DNA of 64,000 bases from NCBI GenBank assembly GCA_951406725.2, contig OX597821.1:78554001-78618000 (forward strand), given 5' to 3'. The position numbers and the translations under genes are program-made. The notes beneath the pieces were generated by a model. The model did no database searches. It saw only the letters and a list, made by a program, of their open reading frames with translations, and was not told the DNA's origin. Positions 1 to 47,076 of this stretch are shown piece by piece (position 1 is the stretch's first letter; each line of letters starts with the position of its first letter). The stretch is from Octopus vulgaris (lineage: Eukaryota).

Positions 1-2913
1 ACGTATAGCCCGTGGTCCAAGTCTTGGATGAACCTTGAAGCTAATGTTTAGGTCGTTTGGGCATAGTTGGCGGTATATTTTCCACATCGTACAAATGATG
101 TACCGCTCACGGCGACGCTGGAGGGAGTAAAGTTTCAAGGCTTTAAGGCGATCCCAATAATCGAGAGCAGCCATGCCTTCAATTCGTTTAGTGAGTGCCC
201 TCTGGGGTGACTCAATTCTGGAGATGTTTTGTGTTGTGTGAGGAGACCACAGTGGGCAGCAGTATTCAAGGTGTGGCCGTACAAAGGAGGAAAAAAGTGG
301 TATGATGACACCTTGTTCTCTGGACCGGAAAGTTCTTAAGATCCAGGAACTCATCCTACGAGCTATATCGACCTTCTTGTTGATGTGTGCACTCCAACTG
401 AGATCGTCATCAACAATTACACCCAGGTCTCTGATATTGTTAGAGGCTGTGAGCGGTTCCCCTGAAGGAAGAGAGTATGGCTGTTTTAGTGAGGAGTTTC
501 TTCCAAAATGCATCAGCTCAAATTTTCCCTCGTTCAGTTGCATTTTGTTTCTGTCTGCCAATTGACTCACAGCATATAGATCAGACTGGAGTTGAGTTCG
601 GTCTGCTTCTTCATTGACGATTTGCTGGAGCTTAGGTGTCATCAGCAAATATTTTCACTTTGCAGTAAAGTACGACACTGGAAAGGTCGTTTATGTAGAT
701 TATGAAGAGTAGCGGACCCAAGACAGTCCCCTGGGGGACACCGCTGGTGACTTTTGCTGGGCTTGAGTGGACTCCATCAACTACAACATGTTGTGTTCTA
801 TTCACCAGGAAATACTTGATCCAGTGTAGAACTTTTCCACGGATTCCAAGATTTGCCAATTTTGAGAGTAGGATATTATGGTCTACCCTGTCGAACGCTT
901 TACTGAAGTCAAGATATATAACATCAGAGTTCGAACCTGTTCCCAAGGCTTTGAGTACATCTTCAATGTGGTGTAAGAGCTGTGTTAGACAGTCCCTGCC
1001 ACAGCGAAAGCCATGCTGATTTGCATTTAGGAGTTTGTGGGTCTCCAGGAAGTCAGCCATCCTTGATCTTAACACTCTTTCAAACACTTTGATGATGTGG
1101 GAGATGAGTGAGATTGGGCGATAGTTGAGTGCGAGGGATCTGTTTCCCTGTTTGAAAACCGGGATGACTGACTGGGATAGAAACTGTTTTCGTATATAAC
1201 CTGCATCTAACGAATTTCTCCAGAGGTTGGTCAGAGGGACTGCAAGTTGGTGTTTACATTCCTTCAGGAGACTAGCGGGGAATCTATCAGGGCCTACAGC
1301 AGAGTAGTATTTGACCTCATTTATTGCTGCTATGATGTCAGTGGGAGTGAAGGTTATGTCTGCAATTTTGTGTTGGGAGTCAACTTCGTTCGCTTCTCTT
1401 ACGTCAATATCAGTGGGAACACTAAAGACAGAGCAGTATTGTTTCTGCAGTATTTCTGCCATTTCTTTAGCAACGTGTTGGGGAATGCCGTTAGCATCAA
1501 TCAATGGCCCAATGGGTGAGACAGTGGTTCTATGCTTATTTGCATAGGAATAGAACACTTTTGGGTTCTGTTTGATGTTTTTGATTACCCACTGTTCCTC
1601 CGCAGCTCTTTGATTTTCAATGGAGGTTTTCATGTCGTTCTGCAGATGAAGTTTTTCCAGCTCTAGCCTTTTCATTGTTGTTGAACGTGGATGTTGTTTG
1701 TGGGAATATTTTAATTGGTTGATTTTTTTGTTAAGTCTTTTGATGCGCCTGATGAGTGTTTTCTTCTTTTTAGGGAGCCGATTTCTGTTTGTGTTAGTAG
1801 ATTTCGTGGGAGCGTGTTTAGAGCATGTATATGTGACAATGTTTTCAAAGTGCTGCCATGCGTTCTCAATATGGGTGGAATTGAGAGTAAAAGACCAGTC
1901 GATGAAAGACAGATCCTTTCTGATTGCTCCCCAGTCCGCTTTGTGGAAGTTTATGTTATCAAATGAGTGCCATGGAGTGGGATTGGCTGGTTTGGTTTTT
2001 TATGTGTCGGGAATTGAAATTGCAGAGTACCATGTCGTGATCTGAGAGGAGAGTTTTTTCAACTGGAATACTGTGAAAGAAGCTAGAGTGCTTGGTCAAT
2101 ACCAGATCCAAAATCGTTTTATTCTGTCTCGATGGTTCGAGCACAAGCTGAGTCAGGAAGTATTCATCCATTAGATTAAAGAGAAGTTCCGCTGCTGCTC
2201 TATCTGATGTAGAGCACTTGCCTAACTTTAGAGTATTTGTGGGCCAGTTCACATGAGGGAGGTTAAAATCATCCATCACTAGTATGTTTCCGGAGTGGTA
2301 CTTCCGAAGGAAGGACTTGACTTTGCTAAGGCACTCTTCAAAGCACTTTAAAGGTGCTTGGGGAGGCCTGTAAAGACCAACAAATGACTATGTCCTTGGC
2401 CTTGCTGAATAGTGATACAGATTCACAATAGCCATTGGAAAATATGTCCTTGGCATCAAGTGAGAAGGAGTCATGGATAAAGATGGCTGTCCCTCCCTTA
2501 TTTCGGTTTGTACGATCCGCACGAACAATGGTGAAATCTTTTATTTTCACCTCGGCGTCTATATGGGTGTTGTTCAAGTGAGTCTCGGTAAGGATAAAGA
2601 AAGGGAAGCAATGTGTCGTTTCGGCAAGCCAACTCTCTATATATGGGATCTTCCATTTTTGGGCAATAATTGATGGGTTGATGCCACGTACATTTAATAG
2701 GATTGTCGAGGTAAGTGAAGTTTGATGTTTGCATTGTTCTAAGTTGTTCAGTGGTAACAATGTGGGTAGTTCTTGTATGGAGCTGTGTGTGTATGATTTT
2801 CTTGTTGGTAGTGGGTGTGTGGTCCTCGTGATTTGCATAGTTGGTTGCTGATAGCTCGTTGGATCTCCTGGCTTAGGTCGGCCTTCATATTTTCTAGGTA
2901 AGTCAGTAAAAAA
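1..2913 (-). pseudogene. LINE ORF2 (APE endonuclease + reverse transcriptase) with at least 3 frameshifts
   Basis: Fragments 2338-2838, 1959-2279 and 632-1675. After FADDT a 1-nt insertion creates TAA; the shifted frame resumes KLQQIVNEEADRTQLQSDL. Confidence 0.88.
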
Positions 2914-4016
2914 GAGTTACCACTTTGGTTTGCCACTTGGTCGGAGGATACATATTTCATGTTTGTGTTATTTGGTGTTATGGTTTTTTCATGGTTCTGT
3001 CTTCGTTGTTTGATTGTAGGAGGGGAAACGTGGTTGTATGCTGCTTTTATTGTTGTTGAAGATCTCCTCTGTTGCTGTTTATATATATTTTGTGATCGTT
3101 CGGTGCCCCTCAGATGGCGGTGGTTGCATTCTGGGTTCAGGCACATCCTCAGTGACACAGAAGTTTGGCACAGTTTAGGATGAAAGAAGGTGCATCTATT
3201 GCCTTTTGTACATCCATATTTGGGGTCAGGACCATGGATTCTGTATTTAGGACAGTATTTGGGGTGGGAGTGAGGGCCGGTTTTTCCCGTTATACCGTAT
3301 GGACAGGTGCCCTTAACAAGTCTACGACATAGGGTGGGATGGGAAAAAGCACAGCGTCCCTTGTTGTTGTTGCCGCTGGGGCCAAATTTACAGTTGCCTT
3401 GAGCATAGTAACGGCAGGGTGTTTGATATGGGTGTATGGGTGATTTTTCTATAGCAGAGTGTTGTTGTTGCTGTAGCAGCAGTGAAACTTGACTTGCAAC
3501 AGCAGGGCTAGCAGGTGGAATAGGGTCAGGTACTGGTGACGTAGTAGCAGAGACAGGCTGGTGTGGTAGTGAGTCCTGTGGAATGGGTGAAACTTGACTT
3601 TCAACAGCAGAGCTGGCAGGTGGAATCGGGTCAGGTACTGGTGATGTAGTAGCAGAAACAGGCTGTTGTGATAGTGAGTCCTGTGGAATGGGTGGAATGA
3701 GGTCAGATGTTTGTTGCTGGCTATCGAGTCGCTGAAGTGATCCCTGACCTGTTGGAGTTGGGTCATTTGGTGCACTACATTCATTGACAAGGATTGCTTT
3801 TAGTGTTGCCATGTGCGTGTGAATAATAGGAAATATTCTGACAATCTCTTTTGTTTTATTTTCTATCTGTTTTACAGATCTGTGAAAGGATTGTTTTGCT
3901 AATTTTTCAGCTATTTTACTGTAAACATTAGCTTCATTGTGGTGAGTGTACCAAGCGTTTATCATTGCAGTGATTTCATTTTCAACCCAGTGGCGTTTTT
4001 GAATATTATCGGCCAT
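2748..4016 (-). CDS. LINE ORF1 protein: Myb/SANT-like N-terminus, Pro/Ser/Gln-rich linker, four CCCH-type zinc-finger motifs
   Basis: Uninterrupted ORF with first ATG at 4016 (MADNIQKRHW). WVENEITAMINAW..YSKIAEKL..RSVKQIENK pattern, then repeated C..C..C..HP units (CRYYAQGNCKFG..CAFSHP etc.). Confidence 0.8.
   Translation of the reverse strand: MADNIQKRHWVENEITAMINAWYTHHNEANVYSKIAEKLAKQSFHRSVKQIENKTKEIVRIFPIIHTHMATLKAILVNECSAPNDPTPTGQGSLQRLDSQQQTSDLIPPIPQDSLSQQPVSATTSPVPDPIPPASSAVESQVSPIPQDSLPHQPVSATTSPVPDPIPPASPAVASQVSLLLQQQQHSAIEKSPIHPYQTPCRYYAQGNCKFGPSGNNNKGRCAFSHPTLCRRLVKGTCPYGITGKTGPHSHPKYCPKYRIHGPDPKYGCTKGNRCTFFHPKLCQTSVSLRMCLNPECNHRHLRGTERSQNIYKQQQRRSSTTIKAAYNHVSPPTIKQRRQNHEKTITPNNTNMKYVSSDQVANQSGNSFLLTYLENMKADLSQEIQRAISNQLCKSRGPHTHYQQENHTHTAPYKNYPHCYH
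2907..2913 (-). promoter_or_regulatory. Candidate -1 ribosomal frameshift heptamer T_TTT_TTA joining LINE ORF1 to ORF2
   Basis: ORF1 codons TCT TTT TTA. The -1 frame has TAA just upstream and is then open into MQITRTT..LNVRG. Confidence 0.55.
3483..3693 (-). repeat. 105-bp (35-aa) in-frame tandem duplication within ORF1
   Basis: PIPQDSLSQQPVSATTSPVPDPIPPASSAVESQVS followed by PIPQDSLPHQPVSATTSPVPDPIPPASPAVASQVS. Confidence 0.9.
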
Positions 4017-4460
4017 ATTCAGTGGGACAGTATTACACACTGTACGTTAGTTATTGATGAAAAGTTTGTGTCGATATATTCGGAAATGCGTGGCTATATC
4101 TGAGTGTGTGTGGGAGAGTTCAGTGTATATAGTACAAATCAGGATGAGCGCTGAGTTTAATACAGATCAAGGAAAAAGAATTGTACTCACGGGGCTAGTT
4201 TTAGAACTAGTCTTGGGTTTAGTTTTGGTTTAAATTTCTTTCTCCAGGTTGTATATAAATTTGTATAAATTTATCCTCCGATGGTAGTAGAAGAGTAGAA
4301 TAGTAGAATTGAAGAATTCAAAAGTACTGGGACTAAAAACAATGAGAGTTTCTGCTGGCTTGAGTTGAAATATGCTTCTTTGGCTACTGACTTTCACCGG
4401 AGCTATGAAAAGTACGTCTTGTCACGACGAATGCCTTTGATATACATACATATGCCTTTG

Positions 4461-5424: not shown

Positions 5425-8400
5425 ATTATGGTAGTGGGCATCAATCGGTCACGTGAGGTCTTGGATCTGTGACCGAAGAAATCGAGTCAGCTCATGATGT
5501 CGGTGCAGCGCCTGTTGTGCTGTACAGGCCCATACAGGAGAGACAACCACGCAGACACTGATTGCTTTCTATGGATTTTTCCTTCCGTCGAATGTGCTTT
5601 TCTTTGTGGGGCGCGTTCCTGTTTTTCTACCGCTCCCTTTATCCCCTTTCATCGTATTTGTCTCCAGCGTGGGCGATCATTTGAGACCTCCTCCCATCTC
5701 AGGACGGCCAGATCAAGCAACTTCATATCCCTCTAACAGACGTCTCTGAAACAGCGAAGAGGTCGTCTTCGTACTCTTGTGCCGTTGGACAGTTCCACAT
5801 ACAGGAAGATTTTGGTATCCTTCCGCCAGGCATGCGATATACATGACCTATTCAGTGCAGACAACGCTGCAGGAACAGGGTGAGTATACTGGGTACCTTG
5901 GCGTGGTTGAGGACTTTGGTGTTGGGGATGTGGTCGGTGCACTTGATATCCACGATGTATCTCAAATTACGAAGGTGGAAAACACCACTCCTGTTTGGAG
6001 TAGAAGCTCTACGTTCCACTGCCGTAAAGTAGCGTGCTAAGGACTCACGCCTTATAGACTGCAATCCTGGTATTTGCGGCCAGTTTTCTGTTTTCTTAGA
6101 CTCTCTTTATAAGCCTACCAAACATGGAGGATGCTTGTCCAATTCACCAATTGATCTCAGGGTCTAGGGAGAGGTAATCGCCGATGGAAGATCTGAGGTA
6201 GGTGAATTCATAGACTACCTCCTGCTTGTAGTTGTTGATGGTGGTGGTGGTGAAGGAGTGCTTGGCACTTTGGCCCAATACTTTGGTCTTCTTCAGACTA
6301 ATAGTGAAGCTGATTTCCTGACAGGCCTTTGAATGTTTGTCCACGACGGGCTGCATTTCTTCTTCAAAGTATGCTGTCAGTGCTGCGTTGTCCGCACTCA
6401 GCATTTCTCTTACGAGTACCTGGCACACTCTGGATTTTTCTTTCAGCCTCGACAGACTAAAGAGTTTACCGTCTGATCTAGTGTTAAAATAAACACCAGG
6501 ATTTGATGTCTCAAATGCATGTTTCAGTATGACTGCAAAGATGTCAAACATGCAAAGCACACAATCCTGTTTCAAGCCGCTAAGTATGTTGAATCCCTCC
6601 GAAGAAGCGCAATAAAATTGAACGACGCCTATCTTGGCGAAGACATTGAATTTTTCAGGTCGATGAAGGTGATCTCTTCTAGCTGTCAAAGAGAGATCAT
6701 GTCGAGGGTGGAATGTTTTGACTTGAAACCGCACTGGGTTTCGGGGTGTACCTTCTTATCGACTTTCTGTAGTCTGTTTAGAACCACGCGGACAAAGACC
6801 TTCATGATGATGCTTAACAACGAGATGCCTTGGTAATTCTTGCAGTCGCTTTTGTCTCCTTTGTTCTTATAAAGGACGACAATGTTGCAGTCTCTCATGT
6901 CTTGTGGTACAGATCCCTCCGCCCAGCACCTACACAATAGCTTCAGCAAGTTGCTAAGTAGAACTCTCCTTGAACATCTGATGATCTCTTGTGTGATGTC
7001 GTCCAAAGCCGGTGCTTTTCCAGTGGACAAGCCATCAATTGTTCTGCTCAGATCTTCTATGTCTGGAAGGTGTTTTACTGTGTCTAACACGCTGTCCGCG
7101 ATGTTTTCCTTGGCATAGAGTGCGGAATAATGTTTCATCAATCCATCCCTCCAGCTGCTCTATTTTGCCCATGATAACTTCACTTGATCTGGATTTGAGC
7201 GGAGTTACCTTGCTCTCGGTTGGGCCGATTGGCTTTCTTGCTACGCTCATGCATTCCACGAATATTGCCCGTGTCAATCGACAGATTGTTATCTACACAA
7301 TTGTATACGGTAGTCATTTGCACATCATCTCACTATCTTCTACATGCTGTTCCTTGCGGATGTTAATGCTTGCAGCGTTGTCCTAGTTGGTTGGTGTTTG
7401 TGCTTCAGCAGGGCAGCACGCTTCTCCTTCATACGGGTATTGAACACTTTCCAGCTCGCCTCAAACCAACCTTGTGTCATTTCCCCCCTCCTCCTAAAGG
7501 CCCAAAGTGCAGAGCAATTGATGACGTCTCTGCGAGTCCCATCTCTGTGGAACATTACCAGTCGGTGGGGCTGCATGAGGGGCGACTTCTAACGCCATGA
7601 GAAATGCGTTTTAGTTGGATGTTGACGTTCTGCTTGCTTGGTGTCTTGGCACAATGCATCATTTTTGGTTGGGGAGTGTTCTGAAAAAAAACCCGTGTCA
7701 GGAGTCATGTGAAAATCAGCTATAGCTGGTGCCAGTGCCCTGAGTGAGGGCGACGCCCAGGGACCCTGTGTTATGCTTTGACCTGCAAGTAGGTATGGTG
7801 ACACATAGTCCATGGAGCATACAGAGCTCTAACAACCGTTGCCTCTTTTCACTCAAGTTGCCAGCCCCATACTGAACCAAACACCCAGACCAGGAGTCGT
7901 GATCAGCTCCCACTCTGGCGTTGATGTTGCCAAGTAACACCAGCTATTCTCCATTTTGGATCGCGTGTAATTTTCCTAGAGAGCTGATCGTAAAACCTTT
8001 TCCTTGGCATCTTGTGAAGAATAGAGAGTGCAAGCATAAGCGCTGATAAAGTTGAGAGGCCAAACAGAAGTGAGAATATTCGCTCCAAACCATCACCGTT
8101 GAGTTTTACCAGCTTCAGCAGAGAGTTCTTCACAGCAAAATCGACACAATGCTCTCTGATTTTATCTGTGCTTTCCCTTGTTAGAAAAAAGTATACTCTC
8201 TTCCACGAAATGTCCCCAAATCTGGGGGCCTCGTTTCCTGGAGTATTGTAATATCCACTCTGATTCATAGCAGTTCCTTGTTGATCACTGCTGTCTTGCA
8301 TGTATCGCTGATCTTTTGAAGGTTATCTGAAGGCCAGTTTTCATGGTCCTTATGTTCCAGCATCTGAGCCTGAATGCTGGCATTTTTTGCGTTGTTTGTT

Positions 8401-16329: not shown

Positions 16330-18531
16330 TGAGTTGTGTGTTCATATTTAGTTGGGGGAGAAATTGTTGATGAAAAATGCCTCTTTATTCAGCCTTTGTT
16401 GCATTGTGGTGTTCTGTTCTTTGTGAATGTTGATTCTTTGACGGAGCGAAAATCCTGTTTGTCCAATATAGAGTTTACCACATCCTATGCATGCCATGAC
16501 ATAGATTACATTTGCTGAGGCGCAGGTAAAATTTGAGTTGATCTTAAATATTTCTCCTTGTTTGAATTGGAATTCTGAAACCTCCAGAAGGTGGGGGCAT
16601 GTTCCACAGTTAGAACGTCCTCATTTTGCCACTTTTGGCTCAGTAGTTAGTGTGTAAATTCTAGCGCTGGTTAATATTCTTTTCAGTGACTTTGGTTGTT
16701 TTTTATAATTTTATATGAGCTTAAAATTTCGTTCATTGTTTTGTCTGCTGTGAGGATGGGAAGGTTTTGGCTGATGATGTTGAAGGCTTCGTTGTTTCTG
16801 GGGTTATGTGCGGAGATGTACGGGAGTATTTTTAAGTCTTGTTTAGTATTTCGGCTAGTTTTCCTTAATCTTTGTATATCTATTTCCTTAGCTCTTTTGA
16901 TGCCTTCATTTACTAATGAGATCGGGTATTGTCTTTTAGTTAGTGTAGATCTAAGTTATGGGAGTCTATGTTCACGAGTGTATGTATCGGAAACTATGGT
17001 GCAGATTCTTTTTGCTAGGTTAAAGGGTATGTTGATTTTTATGTGTTTGGGGTGGCAGGAGTTAAACAAAAGGTATTGTTTAGAATCTGTGGGTTTATAA
17101 AAGATGTCTGTTTCTATGAGGTTGTTAACTATTCTAATTAAGATGTCTGGAAAAGGTAGTTGCTTACTGTTGTGTTCCATAGTGAATTTTATATTGCTGT
17201 GTATGTTGTTGAGCATTCTTTTGAAATCAAGGAGTTGATCCATGCTATCTTGCCAAAGTATGAAGCAATCATCTATATATCTCTTCCAGTTCTCCTTTAA
17301 ATAGCAATTGAAAGAGGCGCCATATTTTTCTAGTGATGATTGGTATAACTTAAGTTCGTGGTAACCCATTACGAGGTTTGCAATCACTGGAGCAGCTCTG
17401 GTCTCCATTGCAATTCCGCATTTCTGTCGATAGTAAGTAGTATCGAACAAGAAATGATTGTTCAACAGGACGAATTTCAGTGCTTCAGATCATAAAATTG
17501 TGGTTAATTCGTCCTGGGATCTCTTCTGGGTATTTTTCTAGCCAAAATGTGATTGCTTCTATACCATAGTCGTGTGGGATATTAGTGTATAGATTCACCA
17601 CATCGAAAGACACCAGTAGAGTCCCGTCCTTTACTGTCTTCAGGAGGTGGTTCAGCATGTCTAATTCATCTCTGATATAGCCTTTCACATATTTTAAAAG
17701 AGGTTTGAGTAATATGTCAAGGAAGTTACTCAAACGGTGGGTTTCGCAAGAAAGACCAGCTATGATGTGTCTGAGTTTGAGGTCAATAGGTGGAGGGACC
17801 TTAATGCATAAGCTTGTAGAGACTTTGCAGGCTTCACAAATGAGTGGATTTTTATGTATCTTGGGTAATCCGTAGAATAGACTAGGACTGTATTTGAAAT
17901 TAGATAGATAGTCGATTTCATGTGTTGTAAGATCCTTTCCATGAATTTGGACTAAGGAGGATAAATTTTTCAGTGTTTTCTGTGGGCTGTAATATGTTAG
18001 TTTTTCATAGTAAGTATTATTTTCCAACATGGAAAGTATTAAATTTTTGTAGTACTCTGTATCCATCAAAACTACCGCACTTCCTTTGTCGGCTTCTTTA
18101 ATAGTGAGGTTTATGTCCTTTTTTAGCTGGACAAGGTCTTTCCATTCATTTAAATTAAGGTTAGATTTGATATGTTGTTTTGGAATGGTATTGTAAGGAA
18201 AACAAGTTATGTGATCACAGAAAACATCAAGTGCTTTATTTCTACCTTTTGTAGGATGGTACTCACTTATATTTTTCACTATTGAGTCATCTTCACTGGT
18301 GTAGTTGTAAAGAGCTTCTGTGAGGCGTAATTTTCGGCAGAAGTCCAAAGTATTGTCCTTAATTTTATTTGGGTTCGATCTGCGGGGGGTAGGGGTAAAT
18401 TTTAGACCTCTTGCTAGGATTTTGATTTGTATAGAACTCAGGATTTTCTTTGACAGGTTGATTATTTTCGGTTGGACTTGTTTATTTGTTTCCATTTCAC
18501 ATCTCTGTTTCTCTGGTTTGCATCTAAAAAA
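16330..18531 (-). pseudogene. Penelope RT + GIY-YIG endonuclease ORF with stops and frameshifts
   Basis: ORFs 17485-18495 and 16956-17465, plus the hand-translated GIY-YIG region. Confidence 0.88.
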
Positions 18532-19560
18532 TGGTTGTAGTATGTGGATTGTAGTGGAAGGTGAGTATTTTGTTTGGTTTGCTGAGGGAAACGCGGGTGT
18601 AAATTGTATCTATGGTAGTATGTTTGTGGTGGAGTGGTTGTGTAGTGTACTGGATTATGGTTGTACTGAGGATTGTTATATCGTCTGTGGCTAATGTAGT
18701 CTGGGTTTAATTGATTTTTAATATTGTGATATGGTTGGAGGGAGAGGTTATGGTATCTAGTCATGTCCCGTCTCGCCGACCGCCTGAAGTGGCTGTGTTG
18801 GGGGTAAAGTCTCGGAGGCAAGTTATTCCTGGTAGGAAGTGGTTCACCAAAACTTCAGTCAGTCTGGGGGTTTCGATGAAATCTTTGGTTTGCATGTGAG
18901 ATACCCCGAAGATCAAGTCTAGATTTACCCGCGTGGGTTGAATTATTGATAGCCACCCGACAGCCATTTGGGAGAGCAAGTCAGTCAGAGAAGGACGAGT
19001 TGCGTACCTAGACCGTCTGTGGTTAGTGTTAAATGCACGTGGGGTCATTTCTGTGTCTGTTTTTGGTTTATTTTTCTTCAGGAAGGGGTTATCCGATGCG
19101 TTTTCTATGTTAAACTGAGTTTCGTAGGTATTAAAGAAATTGGCTTGTTTATCCCAGCGTTGTAAGGAGTTAGTTTCTTCATCCACGCAAGTTGTTTTCC
19201 ATAGTTTAAAAACACTTTCCAAGCGGAGACCGTCCGTAAGTTTCTTTAATTCGTTGTAAATCTCCTCATCTGTTTTTAACTTTTTGTTCACTGCTTAGTG
19301 CTCTAAGCTTAAGGAGTTCAATTTCTGTCTTCATTGTTTCCAGTGCAAGTCTTTCTCTTAATTGTCTTTGTTTGGGATACGCTTAATTTGGAATTTGCGA
19401 GGTAAAATTATTGGTGTAGAATTTAGCCAGCGTTCGTAGATTTCTGCCTTGTGATTGTTTTTAATCATATTCCAAAAAGTATATTTTCTGGCTTTAATTT
19501 TTTTATTCCATATGTGGATAATGCGGTTTTTAATAGAAAGTGTAAGTGTGGAGGGATTGC
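18462..19560 (-). pseudogene. Upstream ORF of the Penelope-like element (frameshifted; helical N-part, N/P/R/Y-rich C-part)
   Basis: Hand translation IWNKKIKARKYTFWNMIKNNHKAEIYERWL..PRKFQIK and QLRERLALETMKTEIELLKLRA leads into ORFs 18761-19291 and 18462-18821. Confidence 0.6.
18525..18531 (-). promoter_or_regulatory. Candidate -1 frameshift heptamer T_TTT_TTA joining the upstream ORF to the Penelope RT ORF
   Basis: CAT TTT TTA GAT in the upstream frame; the -1 frame reads FFRCKPEKQRCEMETNKQVQPKIINLS. Confidence 0.55.
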
Positions 19561-19911
19561 TCTCTTGTGTATGATATATAGGGGGATTTTCATTTACAAA
19601 ATTATTATGCGGTAAAGAGTGAAAGAGTGGTGCATAATTCCGACAAATGGTGATTGAGGTGTTCTAGAGGAAGTTCTTCCTCTTCTTTTTTTTTCCTCTT
19701 GTGTAGAGCAAGTTAGTTCTTCAATCTTGCTTATTATATATATATAGACATATATATATATACATATGTATATATGTATATATATATATATGTATAAAGA
19801 TATATGTATATATTTATATATATATATAGATATACATATATATACATCTATATATACATATACATGTAAATATATATATGTATATATACATATAGATATA
19901 TATATATATGC

Positions 19912-19961
<50 letters not shown>

Positions 19962-19970
19962 GCATGTATG

Positions 19971-20012
<42 letters not shown>

Positions 20013-45792: not shown

Positions 45793-47076
45793 CGAGGGAC
45801 GTTCAATAAGTAATGCCCCTGACCCATTTGCAGTTGTTGGATCTAGCTGCATGTGCAATTATTTATATCTCTATAGAGTAAGTGACAAATTACAGCTCTG
45901 AACTAATTCTGGTTTATGATTTACAGGTGTTTGAACTGAGTCAAGTGTGAAATGGAGCCTGTTGAGTGTCGAGCAGTGATCCGGTTTTTGTATTTGAAAG
46001 GACGCACACCACGGGAGACTTTTGATGAAATGAAAGTAACTTATGGTGATGATGCCCCATCATATGACCTTGTAAAACGCTGGCATCGTGAATTCAAACA
46101 TGGTCGGAACTCTGTGGAAACAGCTCCCAGATCCGGTCGCCCCCTTTTGCCATTGATGAGGCATCTGTCCGTCAAGTTGAGGCTGCCATTTTGGAAGATC
46201 GACGCATAATTATTTGCCAAATAGCCCATGAGGTCAAGATTAGTACCGGGTCTGTGGAAACTATCATTCATGACCATTTGCATATGCAAAAGGTGTCTGC
46301 CAGATGGATTCCCAGGTTGCTCACGCCTTTCCAGAAGCAAGAACGCGTCGAGTGCTCGAGGGTGAATTTGGAGATGTGCCAAGAAGATGAGTCAAACTTT
46401 TTCAAAAGACTGATTACACAGGATGAAACCTGGGTCCATCACGATGATCCAGAGACCAAAGCCCAGTCAATGCAGTGGAAGCACCGTGACTCACGCCCTC
46501 CAAAGAAGGCAAGGGTGCAGCCCTCCGCTGGCAAGGACATGCTCACAGTCTTCTGGGACCAGGACGGAGTAGTGATGACAGATTTCCTGGCAAAGGGTAC
46601 CACAATTACAGGAGCCTATTATGCTTCACTTTTGAGGAAATTAAGAGAAGTTATCAAAATCTAGAGGCGGGGCAAGATCAGCAAAGGCATCCTCCTCCTG
46701 CAGGACAACGCTCCAGTCCACAACTCGCTTGTCGCCAGATCAGAAGCACAGGCGTATGGCTATGAACTCCTCCCCCATCCCCCTTACTTTCCTGACCTTG
46801 CACCCTCAGATTTTCACCTCTTCCCAGTCATGAAGTTGTTTTTGATAGGAAAGCGTTTCCCAGATGATGCAGCCTTGGTTACTGAAGTCACGTTCAGATT
46901 GGAGGACCAAGCTGGGGTCTTCTACAAAAACGGTCTCCAGAGCTGCATCAAACGATGGTAAAAATGCGTAACTCTGGGTGGTTCCTATGTAGAAAAAGAC
47001 TAATAACTGTGCCAAGTTTCGTTGCTCTACTGCTATAGGAAGTGGGTCAGGGGCATTACTTATTGAACGCCCCTCG
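45793..47076 (+). mobile_element. Full-length mariner DNA transposon (irritans-like) with TA target duplication
   Basis: TIRs cgagggacgttcaataagtaatgcccctgaccca and tgggtcaggggcattacttattgaacgcccctcg, each flanked by TA; 1284 bp. Confidence 0.95.
45952..47003 (+). pseudogene. Mariner transposase with a frameshift and stops
   Basis: RSGRP, WIPRLL, TQDETW, QDNAPVH, HPPYFPDLAPSDFHLF; frameshift near 46145, TAG at 46662. Confidence 0.92.

Follow-up and report, generated by a model that had tools for sequence, protein, structure and literature searches.

How the reverse transcriptase (RT) of a retroelement is translated when it lies in a different frame from the open reading frame (ORF) ahead of it is the question raised by a locus of Octopus vulgaris. 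The locus carries a decayed Penelope-like element (PLE) at approximately 19736-16354 on the minus strand of the window, by which we mean the whole stretch of 64,000 nt that was analysed (assembly GCA_951406725.2, contig OX597821.1, positions 78,554,001 to 78,618,000). A sequence-only reading had noticed that the upstream frame, ORF1, ends in YNHFLDANQRNRDVKWKQINKSNRK followed by a stop and contains the codons CAT TTT TTA, and that a slip of one base backwards leads into FFRCKPEKQRCEMETNKQVQPKIINLS, the RT frame (ORF2). Both frames were confirmed on the minus strand. The heptamer T_TTT_TTA occupies 18525..18531 (-) and the ORF1 stop codon TAA 18462..18464 (-), 21 codons past the A-site codon of the slip site and inside the K-I-I-N codons of ORF2. 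The comparison of related elements makes it likely that programmed −1 frameshifting operates at this site and yields a minority ORF1-RT-endonuclease fusion. As the earlier caveat warned, the sequence T6A is common, with 54 occurrences in the window on both strands; hence, a single copy proves nothing and the case depends on the relatives.

For this comparison 21 representatives were used, one per family, taken from the genome of the window plus unrelated contigs of other organisms. A run of six T stands in phase in 20 of them, 114-258 nt upstream of the motif KGLKF, and these 20 are the base for most of the counts below. The lone exception is a decayed copy in which the run is offset by one base. 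In dinucleotide shuffles of each region, an in-phase run occurred in 0-17% of cases. The codon ahead of the heptamer varies (CAT, AAT, GAT, TAT, CGT or CCT), and the variants of the heptamer itself stay within the pattern X_XXY_YYZ (T6A in 16 representatives, T6G in three, T7 in one). An in-phase X_XXY_YYZ heptamer within a −1 overlap, as in canonical programmed −1 signals, is therefore present. Within the family of the window (family A), two frames were found in 30 loci, and the site is covered by 29 loci, of which 17 retain T6A, five lack one T and seven carry a substitution; this retention equals the median for 7-mers there. The family comparison thus gave two frames and not one continuous ORF, and the heptamer recurs in phase in distant relatives. 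The suggestion that RT expression is controlled by frameshifting gains support from this family-wide overlap, which is not an artefact of decay.

The coding pattern behind the heptamer points in the same direction. In the window, the heptamer is followed by a U-poor spacer of 30 nt (18495..18524, -), which is open in the 0 and −1 frames and has no stable fold. Across the representatives the −1 frame has no stop among 180 spacer codons compared to 45 stops among 600 upstream codons (p 1e-5), and the third frame shows no depletion (5/180 versus 9/600). No ATG exists between the heptamer and KGLKF in 14 of the 20 representatives. In the intact young families B, F, G and H, ORF1 and ORF2 comprise 451/811, 411/784, 431/784 and 430/775 amino acids (aa), respectively, if ORF1 is counted from its ATG and ORF2 from stop to stop. 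The first methionine of their ORF2 comes 155, 59, 59 and 134 codons beyond the slip site, after the conserved IINLS/KGLKFTP motifs. Retroviruses use −1 frameshifting on U_UUU_UUA between gag and pol to obtain an abundant structural protein and a scarce fusion enzyme. Heptamer, phase and logic are the same here, and the products would be rich in ORF1 protein and poor in RT.

Some observations weigh against frameshifting as the general route. The representatives were picked by us, with a copy with an intact junction taken where a family offered several, and the ORF1-bearing relative L329 overlaps in the −1 frame without T6. Outside the representative set, L128 lacks one T. Moreover, in family A a 7-mer containing the −1 frame ATG is intact in 28 of 28 copies and the heptamer in 16 of 28, so that a second route to ORF2 may exist in this family.

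Alternative routes to ORF2 were weighed against slippage. The sequence-only reading had pointed to the ATG at 18495 as a possible RT start. This ATG (18495-18493) overlaps the 11th ORF1 codon after the A-site codon, TGG (18492..18494, -), and it is indeed invariant among family A copies; other codons take its place in 16 of the 20 representatives. A start at the codon that overlaps position +30, with the U-run as an upstream tether and by either reinitiation or internal initiation, would fit the ATG that families A, E and J have at this codon, the CTG, TTG or ATA of eight more representatives, and the overlap of this codon with the ORF1 stop wherever that stop lies 11 codons past the A-site codon. 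AUG-independent initiation is also thought likely for ORF2 of mammalian LINE elements according to the available text of PMC5009743. However, eight of the 20 representatives have CTA, GTA, AAA, TGT, TCC or TCA at the +30 codon, and the ORF2 starts predicted for 120 relatives vary widely in position, many of them falling within the conserved motif. The −1 frame is, furthermore, open upstream of the +30 codon, back to the heptamer, and this counts against reinitiation, which would not need an open frame between the heptamer and +29. We regard this route as improbable. Even less credit is due to splicing, in which TTTTTTAG would serve as a 3′ acceptor and an intron would link the start of ORF1 to ORF2. 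T6A is followed by G in 15 of the 20 representatives, family B has a perfect donor (L095:1341) that is in phase with a CAG 5 nt past the heptamer, host gene models link the N-terminal 56 residues of ORF1 with other exons by means of this very donor, and introns occur in PLEs according to a legend in the accessible part of PMC8557442. Yet the site is without AG in five of the 20 representatives (T6G, T6A-T, T7), and a donor in the TAG phase was found only in L114 and L115 among the 11 representatives scanned, L114 itself lacking the TAG. Pyrimidine substitutions such as TTTCAG were never seen. Contigs from eight sequencing runs contained no joint at the site, a weak argument in that the RNA status of the runs was guessed. 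No RNA record was found to carry the element.

The remaining possibility, a single-ORF element broken by a post-insertion indel or a T6A present by chance, was refuted by the family comparison and is next to impossible. T6A is frequent in the window, and a few family-H copies, five of 100 rows, read as one frame of 1109-1214 aa; however, the four fused copies examined have one extra A in the A-run beside the site, their sisters are two-frame, and each family examined has two frames as a rule. As separate observations, the family-H copies L222/L228 and L323-L327, located on different contigs, have one frame of 1199-1214 aa via an extra A beside the slip site, and the host gene models P0004, P0005 and P0126 (receptor phosphatase, DGCR6) start with the first 56 residues of family-B ORF1. 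The latter suggests that the family-B element donates a first exon to host genes, from the donor L095:1341 after ORF1 codon 56.

If ribosomes slip here, the next question is what would make them do so. In retroviral gag-pol, a stem-loop or pseudoknot located 5-9 nt downstream stimulates the shift, whereas in the elements compared here the 45-100 nt that follow the site have little structure and this part of the canonical signal was not found. The RNA 3′ of the site is A-rich and mostly unfolded; in the window, a stretch of 80 nt has a minimum free energy of −4 kcal/mol. Local folding showed no conserved downstream structure, z being below −2 in four of 19 representatives, and 13 of the 20 representatives had no candidate for an H-type pseudoknot. 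Rfam returned only repeat-driven miRNA noise. The spacer is poor in U throughout (47 of 600 bases versus 298 of 1800 upstream).

A different regularity was found in the distance between the slip site and the ORF1 stop. Seven of the 20 representatives (F, G, L112, L114, L119, L120 and L127) have the stop exactly 11 codons beyond the A-site codon, and in none of the 20 is it closer. Spacer peptides within this class are not alignable and the distance to KGLKF ranges from 38 to 86 codons. All seven have C at position +4 after the stop compared to one of the 13 others (p 1e-4), against a background of 128/563. This spacing had been noted ahead of the protein search results and was then tested on independently found ORF1 proteins. 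A profile search with ORF1 gave 1169 clusters at 50% identity, the longest protein among the 150 listed having 706 aa. In 74 of the 93 listed proteins of at least 330 aa, FL occurs within the last 62 residues, compared to eight in the preceding segment of residues. After removal of eight proteins close to the input sequences, 85 were left, of which 70 have F[LF] near the end; it stands exactly 10 residues before the stop in 20 of these 70 and closer in one. Among the 15 proteins without F[LF], six carry F at the 11th position counted from the C-terminus. A search of the octopus genome for this class, xF followed by 10 residues, recovered only known families.

The spacing also extends beyond the clade. 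A scan of 59 loci from metagenomes and genomes yielded seven distant elements (23-29% identity) that combine a heptamer with a −1 overlap and a long ORF1; in two of them the stop follows at 11 codons (one with T6A, the other with A_AAA_AAC and C at +4) and in one at 12. An eighth, L139, was left out because its upstream frame is short.

Ribosomes that queue behind a stop codon are reported to be 11 codons apart, and a terminating ribosome may therefore be a roadblock. In human disome profiling, as far as the available text of 10.1101/710491 goes, queues form behind stop codons every 11 codons and C is enriched at +4, and the accessible part of PMC7784341 reports collisions at stop codons in yeast with offsets of 30-33 nt. 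In the mechanism we propose, the weak +4 C context would slow termination at the ORF1 stop, and the leading ribosome would become the roadblock. The ribosome queued next would be held with UUU-UUA in its P and A sites, and the blocked translocation could favour a slip, as a pseudoknot does elsewhere; slipping back one base on U_UUU_UUA would then yield the minority fusion of ORF1, RT and endonuclease.

Several findings speak against such a queue or limit its weight. Thirteen of the 20 representatives, including the family of the window, do not have the 11-codon spacing, four of the seven distant elements have their stop 1-3 codons after the heptamer, and the 11-codon class amounts to about five lineages within the clade plus two outside. 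Position +4 is A in L157 and in the decayed copy L124. At the protein level, FL is no more than a stand-in for the heptamer, and the search profile included the FL columns; among matches that end before these columns, nine of 47 have the 10-residue distance and none a shorter one, a peak with p 0.008 given the floor (59 proteins in this subset). The p values are optimistic since representatives and 50% clusters share ancestry. In yeast, ribosome collisions gave +1 and not −1 shifts, and programmed shifts were independent of ribosome density, as stated in the available portion of PMC6701860. Hairpins or possible pseudoknots do exist in a few families (D, L111, L119, L127, L120 and L191).

The alternative to a queue is a −1 slip without one, either unaided or helped by a family-specific hairpin or bound protein, with the 11-codon stop being inherited or reflecting a U-poor spacer element. 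The heptamer U_UUU_UUA is known to slip at a low level unaided. The absence of the spacing from 13 representatives, the U-poor spacer itself and hairpins at z −2 to −4 in some families fit such a slip. Against it stands the observation that the spacing is kept despite unalignable spacer peptides and a variable distance to KGLKF, that +4 C is tied to the 11-codon class only, and that the spacing recurs in distant lineages. We give a slip without a queue somewhat less than an even chance. The queued ribosome as a stimulator, which fits the families with the stop at 11 codons, is slightly less favoured, and similarly tentative is its extension to a structure-free, load-sensing recoding signal common to hundreds of PLE families that recurs with other heptamers in distant lineages. 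The queue at 11 codons does not cover the family of the window, with TGG at 11 codons and the stop at 21; a two-ribosome queue or an unaided slip may apply there. Taken as a whole, a Neptune-type overlap read by a −1 slip, in many related families with a pause caused by queueing and not by RNA structure, is a likely account.

Two further candidates were rejected. Tryptophan as a pause codon was considered, with TGG being the 11th codon in eight of the 20 representatives; W occurs at this position in none of 49 independent proteins with longer tails, so that TGG is an inherited trait of one lineage. A cluster of stops at +60 nt, considered as a sign of a two-ribosome queue, is a by-product of the K-I-I-N codons of ORF2, and a bump at 21-23 residues in the proteins is confounded by these codons likewise.

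Relations to known systems are partial. For SARS-CoV-2, the text available in PMC8168617 states that the position of the 0-frame stop matters and that it helps the pseudoknot to refold. As in that virus and in the collision-induced shifts of yeast, the 0-frame stop position and trailing ribosomes would matter for the frame. Whereas in yeast the leading ribosome shifts by +1 accidentally (PMC6701860), the slip site in the model proposed here would be occupied by the trailing ribosome, with the terminating one as its roadblock. In the sections available, PMC8557442 describes endonuclease-bearing PLEs, the Neptune clade among them, as single-ORF elements, while here a separate helical ORF1 overlaps ORF2 in −1; its legends allow an optional ORF1. 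Two ORFs are tied to endonuclease-free elements in the accessible text of PMC6431247, and one fish Neptune element has two non-overlapping ORFs in the corresponding part of PMC12602865, which carries no comment on recoding. The frameshift had been proposed as an overlooked feature of such elements. It is not wholly so: the legend of Fig. 1 in PMC8557442 mentions a PLE ORF1 separable by a frameshift with a pseudoknot, the clades concerned not being evident from the legend, and a coiled-coil ORF1 joined to RT by a frameshift resembles the arrangement described here. Unlike that ORF1, the elements compared here have no shared fold, 13 of 20 have no pseudoknot, and the conserved feature is the stop spacing. 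The legend probably refers to the rotifer Athena/Terminon elements. No account of a stop-spacing rule was found in the literature searched on PLE frameshifting and on collision-induced shifts, and the passages shown of the PMC8557442 supplement have nothing on it; figures, supplements or Repbase may already mark a Neptune frameshift. The −1 frameshift signal is real and clade-wide, and its proposed stimulator is testable and possibly new.

This PLE clade, with more than a thousand ORF1 clusters, encodes a predicted structural protein that is separate and has escaped annotation, and it probably regulates its RT through recoding; the annotation and expression models of endonuclease-bearing PLEs would have to change accordingly. 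If the queue model is true, ribosome collisions, which are usually regarded as mistakes left to quality control, would act as a programmed frameshift stimulator tied to translation load. The signal is about 45 nt long and directly testable with reporters.

The assignment of the window element to the Neptune-type PLEs is based on domains and motifs, the trees holding only the rows of this analysis. ORF2 comprises RT, linker and GIY-YIG endonuclease (16354..18531, -) in the −1 frame relative to ORF1; it is decayed, with frame changes near 17485 and 16700 plus internal stops. The core of the endonuclease was recognized at 16387..16509 (-) by Pfam PF01541 (E 2.8e-5, above the cut-off). Intact relatives matched both RVT_1 and GIY-YIG and thus have an RT with a C-terminal GIY-YIG endonuclease. 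The linker motif CX2-5CXXC, a Neptune-type feature according to the available text of PMC8557442, is present as CGRSNCATC in intact family B, and GRSNCGTC follows a stop in the window copy. A CCHH motif with two Cys between GIY and YIG was read by eye in ORF2 of family B and of the window. Contrary to the single ORF expected of endonuclease-bearing PLEs, every family examined has two overlapping ORFs. The canonical hammerhead ribozyme expected in the pseudo-LTR of Neptune-type PLEs was found neither by Rfam in four loci nor by one core pattern, a search limited to few loci and a single pattern. Those ORF2 relatives that carry names are from molluscs. At its 5′ truncation, the window copy meets a (TA)n-type microsatellite (19735..20010), and alignments with other copies stop at 19736.

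The ORF1 remnant of the window (18462..19570, -) consists of a helical core and a low-complexity Q/N/H/R tail. It is interrupted by stops and frame changes, the last open piece being 18854-18462, and matches intact family-B ORF1 with 40% identity in tblastn and a profile match probability of 98%. In its separate, intact form ORF1 has 410-480 aa with the same helical core and low-complexity tail. The predicted structure is all-helical and confident (pLDDT 88). No Pfam family is common to more than two of 119 ORF1 members, and the model had no Foldseek match at E 0.001, the best Z of 9.1 being to generic helical bundles. Comparison with viral nucleocapsids (Atlas) gave scores of 0.80 or less, a lead only, and the viral contigs searched contained no relatives of the element. 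A search of longer proteins for an ORF1-RT fusion returned one host gene model only, which is weak evidence for the absence of such fusions.

In place of FL, some ORF1 tails carry xF with R, H or P behind it, and F is often the 11th residue counted from the C-terminus (P0136, P0141, P0161, P0207, P0222, P0230, P0245, P0255, P0265, L329 and L141). For the two members with available DNA, the −1 overlap reads T TAT TTT C and G GAT TTT C, which may represent another type of slip site. L126, L129, L140 and L157 belong to a distant PLE clade with a −1 overlap at T6A or T_TTA_AAC, whose ORF1 ends with a DGxH motif that we take to be esterase-like, without a Pfam match. L155 and L169 are very distant PLE-like elements in which no endonuclease was seen at the end of ORF2 and the −1 overlap contains A_AAA_AAC; the overlap of L169 also has short (A/T)ACCC-type repeats. 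L191-L197 and L329 come from bacterial metagenome-assembled genomes with contigs of animal-type PLEs, probably due to host contamination.

The sequence-only reading had stressed that two unrelated elements in the window share one heptamer. The second T_TTT_TTA (2907..2913, -), used here for comparison only, was confirmed; it is part of the overlap between ORF1 and ORF2 in another element, an APE-RT LINE at 632-4046 (-), whose ORF1 has Myb/SANT and CCCH domains (relatives L248-L267). It is intact in 17 of 20 loci of a single family with 92-100% identity. The −1 frame opens one codon ahead of the heptamer in most copies, has an ATG 25 codons downstream, and the ORF1 stop is 156 nt away. A −1 frameshift in this LINE is possible, and the coincidence adds little because the heptamer was checked in one young family in which an ATG follows in the −1 frame. 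The window contains, in addition, another RT fragment at 6686-7159 (-) and a mariner-type transposase fragment (PF01359) at 46092-46661 (+).
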